Assembly (NCBI GenBank): GCA_000442015.1
Contig: KE560903.1
Coordinates: forward strand, 62,001-113,185
Length of the DNA: 51,185 nt
Direction of reading: 5' to 3'
Origin: Rozella allomycis CSF55
Taxonomy: Eukaryota
This document shows positions 20,328 through 32,974 of the stretch, piece after piece (the first letter of the stretch is position 1; each line of letters opens with the position of its first letter). The notes beneath the pieces are model-generated. The model searched no databases. It worked only from the letters and a program-made list of their open reading frames with translations, and had not been told where the DNA came from. The position numbers and the translations under genes were made by a program.

Positions 20328-21734
20328 ATGACTTTGAGGTGGCGTCTACATTTTTTATCATGCTTTATAGTTTTTGTTAACTTCTATACTTATGACCTTC
20401 CCGCTTCGCTTTACAGACCACTTAAAGTTCATTTGCAAATGGGAACTGAATATCCATTTTATAATAGTTTAATGTACACTATATACAGCTTTCCCAATAT
20501 TGTTCTCCCTTGGGCGGCGGGAATAATGCTGGACAAAGCGGGTGGCGATAAATGGGTTTATGTGTTTGCCTCATTGATAGGAATCGGTCAATTTTGTGTG
20601 TCATTGGGTATCTTTATCAAATCAGTTGTATTTATCCTGATCGGAAGGTAAGAAGCTATTGTTGCAACGTTAGACTGATTTTTGGCTTAGGTGGTGAGAG
20701 TTTATCGGTTGCTCAGTCAAATTGGATAATGACTTTATTTGACTCAAAAACTTCTACGTTTGCAATGGGCATTTACTTAAGTATAGGAAGATTTGGGACC
20801 ATTTTAAATAACATATTAAATGCTCTAATTGCAGAGAATATTGGAATTGAATATTGTGCCTTTATTGCCTCGATTCTATCATTCACTTCCATGACTTTTG
20901 CCTTTTATATTCAAAAAAGATTTGACAAGAATGCTGAACTGCTCTCTAAAAAGAAAGGTAAACTTATCACGGTATTTGCTTTTGGATGATCATGAAAATA
21001 CAACAACATTTGGAGATATAATAATGGATTTAAAGGCGGCGCCGATATCTTACTGGATATTAAATATAGTTTGTTTCTGTTACTATGTAACTAATCAAGT
21101 AGTAATTTATTAGGGAACAATAGGTCCGTTCACCGCTATGGCTGCAAACTACCTCGAAAAGACATGGTATAAAGATGATGCTGTGTTAGCAGGATGGATG
21201 ATTGCTTATCCTGACATATTGGCAATATTAATTAGTCCTATTGCGGGTAGACTCACCGATAGATATCAAATGAATTTTTCAGTTTTAGTAGTTAGTGGTG
21301 TTGCAATGACAACGGCATACACATTGCTTTGGTTTGGATTTCATCCATTAGTGTCATTTGCTTTTCTGGGCATTTGTTACTCAACTGTATTTTCACTTTG
21401 GACCAGCCTTCCTAAATTAGTCCACCCTGACGTTTTAGCATCATCGATAGGCTTTACAACAGTATGTATGAACATCGCTTTCGCTGTGGTACCTGCAATT
21501 AACGGCTCAATATCTACAGACCCCAACAATATTGAGTCACCTGTGCGTGTCATGCTTGTACTATCTACCTTAGGTACTTTATGCGCAGTGTTTGTTTTAA
21601 TTCTCAGTAGATTGAGAAATCCCAAGGTTAAAATATATCACGAAATACCTTCAAATTCCACGCCGTCCTTTGTAAATGAATCGACATCTATGTTGTTGTC
21701 TAGAAAAGAAGAAGTTGAAATAAAATTGGAATAA
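20328..21734 (+). CDS. Major facilitator superfamily transporter, MFSD1-like
   Basis: FYTYDLPASL, YTIYSFPNIVLP..AG...DK, GR/LIFGLGGESLSVAQ; about 12 TMs. Three introns, one with a doubtful acceptor (20958-20985). Confidence 0.85.
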
Positions 21735-24432: not shown

Positions 24433-27398
24433 TTATTCTAGTTTAAATTTTAGATCGTTTAAAGGCATAAGAAGGAGAGATAGCACATATAGTATGAATA
24501 AAAAGACGATGAATAATCCAGAGATAATAAATTGGCTGATAGAAGTACCGATTTCAAGCCAACTGCCACTGTCTCTCACCATGAAAAAGAATATTAAAGT
24601 CATTACATCGACTGAGCTTATCACAATTAGGAATAAGCAAAATGGAGGAAGAGACAACTTTTTTGAAATTAATGAGAGTATGGAAGATATTAAAAAGAAA
24701 GGAATAAGAATCTTAAAAGAGACTAGAGTGCCCATAATAAATGGATTAAATACAGTGGTTAGTCGGTATACAGCATTTAACTGAAAACTGCTAAGGCTAG
24801 CAATATTTCCTGTTCCAAAGAAAGCAACATTAATAAAGAATATGAAAAACCATGAAATACGTAAATCTTCAATTTTTAAGGCTCTATATGGGGTAGAAGA
24901 CGCCTTAGGTTTTTCATTTTGTAAGTATTCGATTTGCTCTTTTTCTATCAAATACCAACAAAATAACGCTATTGAGTACAAAGAATAGAACTGTGTTTCA
25001 TATGAAATGGTAAGTGTATGGTAAGGGGTTGCAAATGCTAAAAAGATTATTAATGTCCTGTCATAGTAATTTTCAATGCTTCTTCTATTCCAAAACAAGA
25101 GGGAAAGAGAAAAAACTTTTAAATATTTAAAAATTAATTACAAAATAGGCCCCAACTTAAATATTGGTTCAGCAAGGGAAGACCTGCTTTGGAACTTAAA
25201 TTCTGTATGGTATCAGATACAATGTAAGAATTTAAAATAAATACAATGATCTATCAATAGCAACATCTAACGTTTACTTGTATGATACAAAAAGGATTGT
25301 AATGATTGATAACTCTCTTGATATAAATGAGGCCTAACGCTGAAGTCAAAAGGATGCAAAGAACGCCAAAATTTCTATAAATATTTAAAAATAAAGTTAC
25401 AAATCAAAAACATTTTCAATTTTCACGACAGGCCTAAAGAATGACACAGCTAGTAAATTCAACGTGATAAACCATGAGACTGAAAGTAACATTGAAGATT
25501 TCTTGAGAAACGACCAAAATGATAAAATGAAGCATCCAAAAGCCAAATAGAAACGATCGTAATACGACCCAACCAAGAAAATTAAGCCTCCACAATAGAC
25601 AGACAAAGGCACTACAATTCCCTTAATTAAATTGAATCGCAACTGAATTCTGCTCTGAATTATCTTAAAGTAGAAGAAAATCGGGAAAGATGCATAAATG
25701 TAATACTGAATCGGCGAAGTTTTTAGCCAAAGAATCAAAAGCAATACACAAGATAAGAAGAGGCCGATAACTATCTATTTTAAATATTAATAAATTAATA
25801 ACCTTTAATGTCTTATTTTCTCCTTTGCCGTTCAAGTTCGGATTTCCGTAAAGCTCTAAAGTGGATAGCGTGGAATATATCATCCAACTAACATAACCAA
25901 ATGAAACAATTGTCCTGAGCAATATCCAATCATAAGTTTGAAAATACTTTAATCCTTCCAAAGACTTTTCAATGATATCGAGACTAATCTTGTTGCTTTC
26001 ATTGTATTTTCCAAATTCAATCAAAGTTTCTACATGCTTTTGAAATTTATTAGAATCTAAAGAAATTAAAGGCTTGAAGTCTTTGAAAAAGAAGTCGGTT
26101 TGATTCTTTGATTTCTTTTTCGTTTCAAATTGTAAAAATATTCCAATAGCGTTTGTCAATAAACTTAAACTCTTGAATTTTTCAGAAGAGTTTAGATAAG
26201 CAAATGGAATTTCTCCAACAGAGTTGACAGGAAATGGAATACCAATTAATGAAGCCTGCTAAAAGTCTTAACGTGCCATTACCATTAATGGAGCAACATC
26301 GGCTTGATTAATATCGTTGCGTTTAAATTTTGAGGCAGGCCAAGTCTTTGAATAATCTTCAAGAATTTTGTCCTCTAATGCTTTCACTGGAAAATTAATG
26401 CCCGCACCCCATGCAATAATTGGAGTTCGTGTATTATCCGGGTCTCCATCTCCATGACTTCCTATTTATAATCTTTGAAATCAAAATACCGAGATCGCTC
26501 ATTCCATGATCAGCAGTGAATATATATGCAGTTTTTCTATCATGATTGTAAAATTCGTTCAGTTTTGATTCCAACTCTTTTATCTTTTTGTCCACGTATT
26601 TAATATTCTTATAATAACTTTTTATCAAAATTCATTTAAAAATACCTCTCAGAGTGTGGACCATACGTATGACCGTTTGTGTCGAGACCAAGGAGATGTA
26701 GGAAGAATACAATCTGGTCTGAATGAAGCCTTTCATGCAAAATGTGGTCATTGGTGGCATTCTTGAGCAATTCATCAAACATATCAAATGAAAACTTATC
26801 CAATTCAATCGCGTCTATGTAAAATCTAACAACAATTAATACCCTTTGAAAAATCTTCAAAGTGACTGTCATACATGAATGTTTCAATTTTAGAAGTGTC
26901 TCTCGCGCCATGTTTAAACATTGGGAGTATATCTGGGCTTCCAAATGACCATGTATGTCTAGATTGATTAAAAACTGAATCAAATTCCACTGGATTCATT
27001 TTCCAGCCTTCTATTTTTGATTAATCTAGCCTACCTTTTGTAACAGAACTAACGTCTTCATAAAATCCAGCAATTATTGCAACATGTCCAGGCCTTGATT
27101 CTGTTGGAACTCTGGTGTGTGAAATTCCATATGTTGCATTATTTGCAATCAATGAATGCAAATATGGAGCCCTAAAATTTGACTCGAAGAGTTTATCAGC
27201 TCGTAATCCATCACCTGATATCAAGTCATAAAAGGATTTACCAACAATCAGCACAAGCCTTTTTGCTGGGGCGTCAGCTTCCACTCTGTGTGGAGTCATT
27301 CCATGAACAATTGGTGTTCGAAAATATATATCAAATATGGAAAATAAGTAAATACAATGAAATACCAACCCAATAAATAAAACTGTCAGTAATTGCAT
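24433..27398 (-). CDS. MCD4: GPI ethanolamine phosphate transferase 1 (PIG-N)
   Basis: [70 protein letters not shown]; about 10 tiny introns. Confidence 0.96.
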
Positions 27399-27556
27399 TT
27401 GGAAATTTTCACACTCTTGAATGCCTTCTTGGGAAACAGNCACTCTTGAATGCCTTCGAGGGAAACAGTAAAAAAAATTATCTATATTAATTCAATTTCA
27501 ATTATCAAAACTAAGAGAATTTTATTAGGTATTCATATAAATGGCATGAAAGTACT

Positions 27557-28224
27557 TTATCGTCTTTCATATTTCCTTTCACTTCTTTTTGGTGAAGTTT
27601 CTTTGCGTCTCTTATAATCTTTGTACTCATGATTATGTCTTTCATTGACTTCTTCCCTGTGTCTTCTGCGTGGTCGTGGTGATCTTGATCGTGACCTGGA
27701 TTTTCGCCTCGCCCGATGCCTGTCTTTGGGCGATTTAGACCGAGATCTATTTCTTAATTAAGTATAAATAGTGTTTTTACTTATCACCAGCCCCCAGGCT
27801 GCGTTGGGGTGCTTCATTGTTGATACTCGTTTCAGGAATTTGTACAGGAACAGGCATTCCCCTATAAATTAAGATATACAATCTCTTACAAACTCTTATA
27901 CATTAGTTCCATTTCTTTTTGTTTTAATGCTTGTATTTCCTTTTCTTTTAACAACTCTTGTTCGGTTTTTGATAGTTTCGCAGCCTTTTTTTCTTCTTCG
28001 CGGATGTCCTGTCTCTGTGATTTATCCTTCATCCACCAAGATAAGTCTTTGTTGTTTTGCCACCTCCCAACGGTAGCTTTGATTGAATTTCCAATGTAGT
28101 TTGTTCTGTGACCGTCTTCTTTTACCTTATCCCAATTAAATTGGTCCCGTCCACCTCTACATCCAGACCTTATGATATCAGCGTCTGGATCAGCCAACTC
28201 TTGGAGCCAATGAACTTTTGGCAT
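27557..28224 (-). CDS. MMTAG2/C1orf35-like protein with RS-rich tail
   Basis: RGGRDQFNWDKVK...NYIGNS..ATVGRWQ..KDL.W; two introns, then an RS-rich exon ending at 27557. Confidence 0.85.
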
Positions 28225-28354
28225 TTTTGTGGCTTATGCGTAAGCGCTTGACTAAAGTCTTTTGTTACGAACAAATGATTAGTCTGGCATAATTACATTT
28301 ATTAATAAAATGTACATTTTCTTTCTTGTTTTGGATATTCACGATTTTTACAAA

Positions 28355-30510
28355 ATGAGTAGGAGACAGACAAAGGGCAGGAAATCATTACTAGTGTCGA
28401 TACCATTGCCAAAATCATTAATTGTAGTTTTGAGTAAGCCTAGAATTACTCGTTCTTCTGCTAACATTATTAAAGCCGTTTCGACCACTCCTTCAGTAAG
28501 CGAATATAGTAGTCAAGAAAAACAGAAAACAGATGAAAAGATCAGTTATGATCAAAAAATCACAAATAAAATATTTGAAAGCATCGAAAGAAAATACAAC
28601 AAACAGGTCAAAGAAAGATTGATTGAAAATAACATACCCGTGAATGAAAACTACTCTTACAAGCTATATGGAGACAAAATTGAATGGAACTTTCTTCACT
28701 GTGCTTCATTTTTCGGGAATAATGAGATTGTAACAATGTTATTAGAAGAAATGGGAGCAGATGTGGAGATGAAAGATTCAACACATCAGGGTGCAGCCCT
28801 TTCATGGTCCGTTTTCGGAAATCAGATTGAAACATCGAAAATTTTGATTCAAAAATATAATGCTTCATTGGATTCCAAGAATATTCATGGTCAAACACCA
28901 GCAGACATTGTTGTAGATAGAGAAAGAAAAGAATGGTATTCTTCATAATATTGGGTTATAAGGCGTGAACTGTTTCCTTCTTTAACTGAAGAAGAAATGA
29001 GATTGCAGGCACATTTGTCAGCAGATCAAAAAATCATGCTTCAAATTTGGAATATTCTCGTTGGAATGAAAGACAAACAGTAGGTTATAATTTAATAGAT
29101 AACTTAAGAGGTCGATTGTATTGTGAATTGTTTATGGATTTGCCATCCAGGAAACATTATCCTGATTACTATGATATAATTAAGGAGCCTATTTGCCTAA
29201 ATGAAATAAAAGAAAAAATTATGAATTGTGAATTTGAAACATTTGGGCAATTTAGTGAGAAAGTAATGCAGATGTTTGAAAATGCAACAATATATAATGA
29301 TTCTTCATCAATTGTTCACAAAAATGCCCTGAACCTTCAAGTATTTATTAATTTTTAACTTTGAAAGAATGTGTTTATTTTAGAGATGAGAGAAAGAGCC
29401 AATTACTTTGCAAAAAGAAAAGAAGACCAGGACAAACAATTCTTTNAAAAAGAAAAGAAGACAAGGACAAACAATTCTTTCATTCATATCAAATTAACGA
29501 TAAGATAACTATTTATCCATCTGATTTTGTTTTGATCTCGCATCCTAATTATTCAAACAATGTTATTTTAATGATAGAAACAATCTTTGAACGAAATGAA
29601 TCCACATTCGTTACAGGGGGTTTATTTTTATTTCCGGAACATTTGCATCATTCATCATCCAAAAGCTTCTATGATAGAGAAGTTTTCAAGTCTAATACAG
29701 TTGTAGAAGTTCCAATATTGTCAATTTCACATAAAGTTTGCGTCCTTTTCTATCCTGATTATATTTATGGTATTGAAATTATAAAAAGATTATAAAGGTC
29801 TTCCTCAAGGGTTTTCCAGTGACCTTGTTTACCTTTGTGAATCCAAATACGCAGAATCAAGCAGAAATGTTTCATCGNCAGAATCAAGCAGAAATATTTC
29901 ATCGATTAGAGATTGGTCTAAAATTACAAGAAAAAGCCATCTTTTGATTCCACATGATGTTCCTTTAGTGTTAGAAAGATCTTTAACTGTTAAAGGCGAG
30001 AAGGTTGAAAGTTCAGAGAACACTCCCGCCAAAAGGAAAAAAATGAGCTTTAAACAAATGTTCGACGATGGAATTGATGAAGAAAAAGAAATTGAAAGTA
30101 AGAAACTAAAAGGAAGTCGAAACTCAATAACCCCTTACGCACCACGTTTAAGTACTGCCCCTGTAGTCCATCAATATTCTGTAGCTGAAGTGACTCATGA
30201 ATGCCATTTGAATAGTATCGTTTTGGGCTTACGAAATGGTAATAAAACTATCGATCTCAGTTCCATATCCAAATCTATAATGGTTAGGTCGGGTGAGGTG
30301 TCAGTTGCAGTAGAAGCAGAAGAAATTGGTCAACGTGCATGGAATGTTTTAGTTTATCAAAACATGAAGAGATGCTATCCTTCAGAGAATGGTGATTTCA
30401 CGATGAGACTAAATATGGGAATGAACACCGTCGAATTCTTCACTTGCCTTGCAGGGATCGGCAAACAGAAAATGACCTTATCGCAGCGACTCTTTCTCGT
30501 AAGAATTTAA
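28355..30510 (+). CDS. Ankyrin-bromodomain-BAH chromatin protein (RSC1/2/polybromo-related)
   Basis: ANK (NFLHCASFFGNNEIVTMLL, GQTPAD), bromodomain (FMDLPSRKHYPDYYDIIKEPI...NATIYN), BAH (FYDREVFKS, VYLCESKY). Frame is restored by tiny introns and by collapsing N29446 and N29878. Confidence 0.8.
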
Positions 30511-30591
30511 GAAAAAATATTTAATGAAAATACCATCAATAAATGTCACTAATTTTGAAAATGTAAATATTGATTTTAGATAATTAAGCCG

Positions 30592-32872
30592 ATGAGCAGG
30601 CGTTCTAGCAATCGTGATTTGTCAAACTCTAATACTTCTAGTAGGAGAACCATTCCTATTAGCTATGCTCCAAACAACCAACGCTCACATTTGGTAGTGT
30701 CATTACCTCGTCGATTTCAAAGAGCAAGCAGACGCGCACCAACATCTGTAGAAGAACCAAATACACCTTCCAATCAATCAAATAATGAAAATATTAATGA
30801 AAGTGATTCTCAGATTGATAAAACAGTGGCTGAGCGAAAGATGTCCTTTCCAATAGAAAGTTTTTCTCCGAATATTGATTTTGATGTTTTAGGTAAATGC
30901 ATTATCATTTCGTTATAAAGATTCATGGGTAATGGAATACGTCAATTATTATCGTCCATCAAATCAGGATATGGCTCAAAATGATATTAATGTACAGAAA
31001 AAGGAATTATTAGTAAAATTTTATGTCAATATTCAAAGGGAATCCAAAGATGTATTAATGATGGCGATATTGTGTCCGCTTTGCAATCTATTGAGAGATT
31101 CTTTCCGTCAGTACTAAAGTATAACCAACTGCATTCAAAGCTATTGCAACAAAAGGTAATGCGAATGTAGAGTCTTATAAATAGTTTTTAGAAGCAATCA
31201 GAACATTTGGTTGTGATAAAGGGCTTGAGATTTTGAAGACTGTCCCAAAGGAAATGCTGCAAACATCAACTGAATGGAAGAGATGTATGCTAGCGCTTGT
31301 TTTTCCACCAGAAAATGATCCTGATACGACTTCTATTTGGTAATGGATCGTTTTTAGTAAAATACAGGTCTCTTCATCGGAGAAGGACTCTGTCAATGAA
31401 TTTAGCTCAAGCAGTTTTCCAATCGCAAGGATACGACGAACCAAAATTCTCATTGGCGTTAAAGTAACCAAATACATTTTTATATATTGATATTTAAATA
31501 TATGCCATTCTACATGTTTCGCAACGTCTGACAAGTCATCGCCCATCGAATCATTGACTGAAAATTTTGTACTTTCAACACAAAGAGAAAGTCTTAATGA
31601 TATACCAGATGATGCCAATTTACTTTGCACAAGAAAGGATATTCAGGACTTGGCAATATCCACAGGGTTTTCTGACGTTGAAGCGCGTGCTGCGTTAGTA
31701 TTACACAAGGGTGATCAACAGAAATCTTTTAAACATTTACTATCCAATATAGTTTTCAACATAGACTATGTTTTAAGCTTTATCGATGAGTATGGAAATA
31801 TAAGTGGTAAAATAGGTATGCTGATTGGCGGGGTCTTAGAATATCAGATTCCATGGAGCTAACTCAGGTTTCAGAAATCAGGTAATTATTATTTCATTAT
31901 TAATAAACAGCAAATTGAAAAGCTCTTTCCATAAGATTTTGACATCTGTGCATCCAGACGTTGGAATAATAAACAAATTGATGAACAAGATATCAAAGCA
32001 ATCTCCATCTTTGATAAAACCAGATATTGTATTTTGTCTACAAGCTTACACGTTCATTCAGTACCTACATAAAGGAGACGTGCCATCCGCTTTGTCTTTT
32101 CTAAGGGACTCATTAAGTAATTGAAAGCCATATTTGTGATTAAGCGCCTTTGGCCAATAATGATGAATCTTTAACGCCTATACTAAAAAAGCTTAGCACT
32201 GCTTGTATCATTTATAAAAAGGAAGACTTACTAAACTTTTATTCAAGCGTAACAGATAATATATTGGATTTATTAGCTTGGAGTAAAGGAAAGAATTGAT
32301 GATTTGTTTTCTTCTATTAATGGATTTACCGAACCTACGCTGATTTCAATACTCAAGTGGTTGTTGAAAACCCATCAGTATCTGAATCAGGGACAGATTG
32401 ATCAGTAATTGTTTAAGATAAAAATAATAGATATGGTGAATTGTTACATATTTCCAGATTAAATAAAAGTCTAGGGAAAGTGCCAATGTTTACTAAATCT
32501 GAAGAATCCTCAAGTGAAAGAGATGACATGGCGATGCCGATTTCAGAGCCACCTTCATCTTTGAATTTCAACGCACTTGAACGACAAGTTGAGGCAACAA
32601 TCCAGGCCAGAAGAAGTTTACTGTTTAGCAATAGGGAAACAGTTCCTTTATTAGGAAATGAAAATGATTCGCTTGATTTAGATGAAGATCAGATGAATGA
32701 GAGAATTCCGGATCCTAGTGAAACATCAGGAACAAATACAAATGTTGAAATTTCTGACGAGGCGATTGAAACTTTGATCGATATGATGGCGTTAACTAGA
32801 AGTGAAGCAAGAGCTTTATTGATCAGACACAATGGTTCTCTAGGAGAAGTCCTAAATATTCTATTCAACTAA
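30592..32872 (+). CDS. Protein with two LisH/CTLH/CRA-like modules and two UBA-like domains
   Basis: GDIVSALQSIERFFPSVL...LLQQKFLE; FCLQAYTFIQYL..GDVPSAL.FLR; UBA-like GFSDVEARAAL and C-terminal DEAIETLIDMMALTRSEARALL..HNG; about 10 introns. Confidence 0.7.
31464..31489 (+). other. Putative non-canonical GT-TG intron (26 nt)
   Basis: gtaaccaaatacatttttatatattg. Removal gives EPKFSLALKYLNICH, collinear with the gene's second module EPTLISILKWLLKTH. No in-frame AG nearby. Confidence 0.6.
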
Positions 32873-32974
32873 AAAAATAAGAATTTCAATAAAGAGAAAT
32901 TTTAATCTATTATGTTTTAATTATTTTTTTGTTTTTTATTTTTATTTTCTGATTTTTTTTACATTTTTTGTTTT

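Follow-up and report, generated by a model that had tools for sequence, protein, structure and literature searches.

The AG at the end of introns is among the most constant signals in eukaryotic genes, and in human genes a TG acceptor has been found only beside an AG. A gene of Rozella allomycis CSF55, a parasite that resembles fungi, raises the question of whether a spliceosome can cut at a TG that has no usable AG next to it. The gene lies in a stretch of 51,185 nucleotides (nt) of contig KE560903.1 (positions 62,001 to 113,185; here the window, to which plain coordinates refer) and encodes a protein with two CTLH/CRA modules. A prediction made from the letters of the window alone had placed in this gene a tiny intron, 31464-31489, that begins with GT and ends with TG. 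We conclude from sequence comparisons that this intron is probably genuine and removed by the major spliceosome, with the TG as its only nearby acceptor. The TG-spliced product would be the main messenger RNA.

The features on which the original prediction was built are present at the junction. The 26-nt intron starts with GTAACC and ends with TTG, its retention would bring a TAA into frame, and the first AG 3' of the donor is out of phase (Table 1). In-frame ends at 20 and 23 nt lead to stops. The in-frame ends that leave the frame open lie at 26 (TG), 29, 32, 35, 41 (TG), 122 (AG) and 128 (AG) nt. The 26-nt end is the sole G-ending one within the usual 26 to 31 nt, and in this sense 26 nt is the one joining excision at modal length. 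The prediction was right about the nearest AG (31535) and overlooked a canonical in-frame AG at 31585. The intron starts with GTAA, as do 903 of 1340 short introns, more than with any other donor, and it has an A at +23 and the modal length.

The site was compared with the assembled contigs of sequencing runs X1, X2, X5 and X6. The X1 contig (record 8, 30805-32915, depth 257) has six differences from the window and the X2 contig (record 15, 31108-32190, depth 188) has three, all of them elsewhere and with no gap. Both carry the same T31488 and G31489, so the TG is not an assembly error.

The prediction also called for a genome tally of GT..NG introns of 25 to 32 nt. The R. allomycis genome comprises 11.86 Mb in 1059 contigs, and our intron survey covered 808,235 bases of it in 30 segments: the window, 60 kb more of the same contig, 600 kb of another contig and 27 kinase loci. 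A purpose-written gene finder was trained on this sample. Run with canonical signals, it placed 1227 of 1529 introns at 26 to 29 nt and 19 below 26 nt. It was then run blind to the acceptor, with any dinucleotide allowed at an equal penalty, and phase-matched positions in canonical introns supplied the expected number of in-frame G ends. The focal intron and three candidates bearing undetermined bases (N) were excluded from this count. Junctions without an AG had an in-frame G end at 26 to 31 nt in 31 of 46 cases, against 14.7 expected, and the strongest set in 13 of 15, against 4.5 expected. The tally thus returned more in-frame G ends than expected. Ends with the G alone retained are more numerous than those with the A alone retained, by 13 to 2 in the 16 strongest cases and by 24 to 9 over all 50, which is unlike random damage to AG. 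In the full census, 50 of 1594 introns end in TG (36), GG (9) or CG (5), collectively BG, with the same result from two starting priors. GTAA donors are found in 35 of these 50. We estimate that BG ends close about 3% of introns and AG about 97%.

For three genes, homology requires a BG end. The end of a 29-nt TG intron in a Sac1-domain gene (profile positions 216|218) and that of a 26-nt CG intron in a DUF846 gene are fixed to the residue by Pfam positions. A 27-nt TG intron in the HMG-CoA lyase gene, which has an in-frame stop inside, is fixed by solved structures (chain residues 138|140). The Pfam flank test covered 76 of 92 exon pieces, with 16 left out for N, duplication or a fused model. 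Six BG junctions had one Pfam family on both sides. Two of these are gap-free, two fall in variable loops and one, HMGL-like, was settled by the structures; at the remaining junction a 29-nt TG end is favoured over the 26-nt GG end first chosen. Pfam positions prefer a 29-nt TG end to a 26-nt GG end at L044 6745 (C861 56745), so a reachable GG may be passed over for TG. A junction in the D-2-hydroxyglutarate dehydrogenase gene was discarded as not pinned: its upstream exon aligned to the last residue and its downstream exon had no true match.

What weighs against a TG acceptor at the focal site is set out here together with the rival readings. The most ordinary of these is a 122-nt GT-AG intron (31464-31585), under which 32 residues past the junction would be absent from the protein. 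This intron is in frame and canonical, and it was chosen by both public models of the gene, P0001 and P0002, and by our canonical-only gene-finder model. Introns of at least 40 nt account for 105 of the 1594 predicted, some of them AT-rich and plausible, and some AT-rich introns of 54 to 80 nt in the sample look real. The public models were unable to choose a TG, however, and they begin at an internal Met, without most of module 1. The 122-nt intron must skip the AG at 31535, and of the 1055 canonical introns that exceed 26 nt, just 18 skip an AG at 26 nt or beyond. The 96 bases that it would remove form an open frame, as do 5.8% of intron-like pieces, and have 34% GC. Their coding-versus-intron score of +3.9 is reached by 1 of 257 intron-like pieces, while 273 exon pieces have a median of 8.4 and a 5th percentile of 2.3. 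In the HMG-CoA lyase gene, the comparable long canonical parse (81 nt) removes conserved residues. On balance we regard the 122-nt intron as improbable. A chain of mini-introns across the same interval was rejected, as no GT follows the TG.

Slightly less probable again is that the TG is a damaged AG, either a defective or weak allele beside a working one or a change tolerated in a dispensable gene. The locus is about 1% heterozygous, its alleles split in depth at roughly one third to two thirds, and contigs can conceal a minority allele at 31488; those of X5 and X6, which span the site with 18 and 35 differences, are uninformative at this base. Yet the window, X1 and X2 all have T there despite differences among them nearby, and the gene is otherwise undamaged across its 668 codons. 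P0001, four residues different from the window, also takes the far AG, which is a weak point because one model may have guided the other. Genome-wide, damage would have to strike A far more than G and break about 3% of introns, including those of conserved enzymes, and non-GT donors lack a matching pattern. The last rival keeps a tiny non-canonical intron and moves its end, by distance alone, to 29, 32 or 35 nt (TA, TT or AA). These ends are open, and the acceptor-blind model itself took 29 nt at the focal site. Since it is G in particular that is in excess (38 of 94 in-frame positions, with 7 for C), the three homology-pinned introns all end in G and the internal module alignment is best at 26 nt, we consider this reading very unlikely.

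Other adverse points concern the tests. The alignment between the two modules of the protein is gap-free, as the original prediction said, but it is weak: it scores 30 at the 26-nt end, a value reached by 3.7% of 2000 shuffles, where the six remaining open ends score 20 to 23, and whole modules align no better than shuffles. A Pfam scan of the focal junction gave no match on the junction side of either flank. The ab initio census missed the HMG-CoA lyase intron and counted one or more spurious cases, among them window 30499, which proved to be two fused genes and was rejected. Out-of-frame AGs are not depleted just downstream in the final set of 49 (7/183 versus 196/5070 positions), and a competing-AG test on the first candidate set (1/31) is not used as support. 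When dinucleotides were admitted one at a time, TT rescued 30 junctions and TG 33; this run does not discriminate, because a TT often occurs in frame nearby and rescues the same junctions at shifted ends. In the available part of a survey of human genes, TG is never the sole acceptor (PMC2374985), and the link to Prp18 drawn below is one correlation in one species.

How a TG could be recognized is suggested by the geometry of the short introns. An A stands at +23 in 88, 67, 64, 74 and 61% of introns of 26, 27, 28, 29 and 30 nt, compared with about 30 to 40% at most other positions, and in 34 of the 50 BG introns. This A is the putative branch point, apparently set by its distance from the donor. 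No pyrimidine tract was found in the sample's short introns. An AG that ends short of 26 nt is disregarded, and the earliest one at 26 nt or later is taken. G ends that precede the AG of a canonical intron are not used (38/477 such positions). With AG in about 97% of introns and these upstream G ends passed over, TG is a fallback and not the equal of AG. The idea that an acceptor is set by donor distance plus a terminal G therefore gains support beyond the host gene, with the amendment that AG is still preferred. Among 1340 short introns, AAG ends are frequent (401) and CAG ends infrequent (147), which indicates that the pyrimidine rule at position -3 is also relaxed.

We propose that a GTA donor and a branch A about 23 bases on would form a fixed frame, within which the cut would fall at the first AG ending at least 3 bases past this A, for a total of 26 to 31 nt. 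With no AG in reach, the spliceosome would take a TG or, less often, a GG or CG. Such ends would retain the last G, the partner of the intron's first G, and sacrifice the A whose partner is the branch A. A more tentative part of the proposal is that their tolerance may stem from relaxed second-step proofreading through an altered Prp18 loop, not from U2AF1. The scheme fits the pairs described for the yeast structure, G(-1) with G(+1) and A(-2) with the branch A; in that structure, positions -3 and -4 are supported by the Prp18 loop (10.1101/212811). With a branch A at -4 in 26-nt introns, the geometry would have to be strained.

A U2 small nuclear RNA (snRNA) is present in the genome (139 bits). 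U12-type introns have an extended donor consensus of the GTATCC type. The focal donor reads GTAACCAA, unlike that type, and the BG class has mostly ordinary GTAA donors. A full-length U12 snRNA-like match (G000:C861:364863-364995, + strand) is weak, at 36 bits, and lies below the cut-off of 53.

The original prediction had looked for the cause in U2AF1, as a loss of residues that contact the AG. This proved wrong. The residues that contact A(-2), G(-1) and position -3, as given in the available part of PMC7505975, are all kept: F20, C27, R28, H29, C33, S34, R35, C149, R159, C163, N164 and F165 (S. pombe numbers). The sole change among contact positions is a Ser at position 32, a main-chain contact. 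U2 snRNA, Slu7, Fyv6/FAM192A and the Prp8 alpha-finger are present and, to the extent checked, appear normal. As Slu7 and Fyv6/FAM192A were both found, their loss was dismissed. Damage to the alpha-finger was also dismissed: its exon aligns gap-free to yeast 1556-1630, with Gln and Arg at 1594 and 1604. Elsewhere in the Prp8 gene (L109 1404-1429, - strand) the frame is broken by a duplicated stretch in the assembly, probably an artefact.

Prp18 is different. It is encoded by one gene, found above the Pfam cut-off, and in its conserved loop Thr, Gly and His are replaced and one residue is inserted, plus a Pro. The altered loop lies within one exon and is present in both public models. The Rozella query found 154 homologues. 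Loops of standard length are present in 138 of them; the anchor motif is missing from 1, and the other 15 are truncated or read-through models. The ninth place of the loop is His in all 138 standard-length loops (138/138), whereas Rozella has Asn and one extra residue. A metagenome scan for Prp18 found no relative. A human structure shows a bridge between H289 and the docked acceptor's backbone (available part of 10.64898/2026.08.05.741260). H289 would correspond to the His replaced in Rozella, judged by H-x-R spacing and not by alignment. A link between the loop change and BG tolerance is a tentative suggestion.

Known systems were compared as far as the available parts of the papers cited here go. 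Yeast without Prp18 uses BG sites and short branch-to-acceptor distances, and Prp18 loop mutants raise the use of an AUG site (PMC10711555, Roy et al. 2023). The focal intron most likely works like these BG acceptors, and not like the human tandem class. As in Saccharomyces cerevisiae with a Prp18 defect, the terminal G is kept, A(-2) is replaced and the distance from branch to acceptor is short; AUG, UUG and UGG are among the sites most used in yeast. The yeast events, however, are minor errors in mutants, with an annotated AG alongside, and lie at least 7 nt from the branch. In Rozella the BG end is apparently the only nearby acceptor in a wild organism, 3 to 6 nt from the putative branch A, and Prp18 is not absent but has a changed loop.

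TG acceptors are known in human genes (PMC4176328, PMC1557818), with GNAS and TSPYL2 as cases cited in PMC4176328. In 36 genes they serve only as alternatives to an AG that lies at most 28 nt away, and in none is TG the single acceptor (PMC2374985, Szafranski et al. 2007). Human TG-AG tandems and the Rozella introns share a GT donor, a TG acceptor and the major spliceosome. At the focal TG the next AG is 46 nt on and out of phase, although at some Rozella BG introns an AG is nearer, as in the Sac1-domain gene (18 nt). The Rozella class amounts to a few percent of all introns, against 36 human genes.

Ultra-short introns (median 22 to 27 nt) are also described from myxobolid myxozoans and Dicyema japonicum, with a GTa donor, a weakly conserved A whose distance to the AG grows with length, no pyrimidine tract, and intact U2 snRNA and U2AF (PMC13644364). 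Rozella shares with them the narrow length below 30 nt and the donor-anchored A. Those organisms are animals, and the terms 'non-canonical', 'GT-TG', 'Prp18' and 'Rozella' were not found in the text of that paper. Blepharisma stoltei has one GT-GG intron among introns of 15 to 16 nt, supported by RNA reads (10.1101/2021.12.14.471607). It resembles Rozella in having a G-ending non-AG acceptor in a genome of tiny introns, as one example in a figure caption. The literature searched, which included the available part of PMC8476143 and covered few subscription papers, held no report of non-AG acceptors in Rozella.

A species with a few percent of BG introns that have no usable AG would show that the last G and geometry suffice, and would allow early reading of the AG by U2AF1, which is intact in Rozella, to be separated from late proofreading at the active site. 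With a representative sample, several hundred BG introns would be expected genome-wide. Rozella may possibly possess a naturally retuned second splicing step, though we put this forward with reserve: the Prp18 loop would have changed to fit an acceptor 3 to 6 bases behind the branch A, with BG ends as a by-product that serves as sole constitutive acceptor in about 3% of introns. Rozella would then live in the wild with a loosened fidelity known so far from yeast mutants alone. R. allomycis is a reference species for early fungi, and its public gene models would be miscut at such introns, with the host gene as an example.

The two public models of the host gene fall in one protein cluster and have 405 residues. 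Both begin with an internal Met of exon 5, and most of the first CTLH module (30592-31400) is absent from them. The 668 residues obtained with the TG intron fit the Atlas leads for this protein, CTLH proteins of 672 to 774 residues with scores below 0.9, better than the 405-residue models do. Pfam PF10607 matches module 2 with 27.8 bits (cut-off 26) and module 1, in exon 31039-31155, with an E-value of 0.021, and UBA-like families give weak profile matches. A PDB search with P0002 found no true match, and a single-sequence fold of P0002 (mean predicted local distance difference test score 40) was not used.

Table 1. Features of the host gene and of a second candidate in the window.
Feature	Position	Strand	Basis or remark
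Two-module CTLH/CRA gene	30592..32872	+	11 exons, ten introns; 668 residues with TG intron used; UBA-like region after each module
Exon 5, 5' of the focal intron	31368..31463	+	Donor common to P0001 and P0002
Focal intron, GT...TG, 26 nt (probable)	31464..31489	+	Bases in X1 and X2 contigs; splicing predicted
In-frame TAA on retention	31465..31467	+	Reading frame
A at intron +23, putative branch adenosine	31486..31486	+	Genome-wide +23 A peak; role predicted
TG, predicted 3' splice site	31488..31489	+	T31488 also opens an in-frame TGA that blocks shorter excisions
First AG 3' of the donor, 72 nt away, out of phase	31534..31535	+	Sequence
First in-frame AG, acceptor of the 122-nt intron of the public models	31584..31585	+	P0001, P0002 and canonical-only model
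96 bases, exon with the TG intron, intron with the 122-nt intron	31490..31585	+	Open frame, coding score
Exon 6 with the TG intron	31490..31789	+	Exon model
Nine canonical GT-AG introns, 26-29 nt (within 30893..32430), first four	30893-30920, 31013-31038, 31156-31184, 31340-31367	+	Exon model
Canonical GT-AG introns, rest of the nine	31790-31815, 31882-31910, 32117-32144, 32249-32276, 32405-32430	+	Same junctions in P0002
Second non-AG candidate, 28 nt, GT...TGG, MFS transporter gene	20958..20985	+	X1 contig as window, no difference

At the second candidate in the window, the canonical-only model requires a 112-nt intron. Its end is unpinned, because the upstream exon matches MFS_1 and the downstream exon has no match.

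Some predicted introns of 53 to 60 nt (L015 1375 and 1909, - strand; C861 490927) contain an internal AG followed by a GT near 27 to 31 nt, like chained mini-introns. At window positions 27431, 29411-29464 and 29852, stretches of 27 to 35 bases beside single Ns are missing from the contigs of two or three runs. They probably arose when the assembly duplicated short pieces at heterozygous sites, and they give false tiny introns. Allele depths in X1 and X2 lie near one third versus two thirds at several places in window 24763-30804 (100/276, 64/193, 114/286 and 71/183), a hint of three genome copies.
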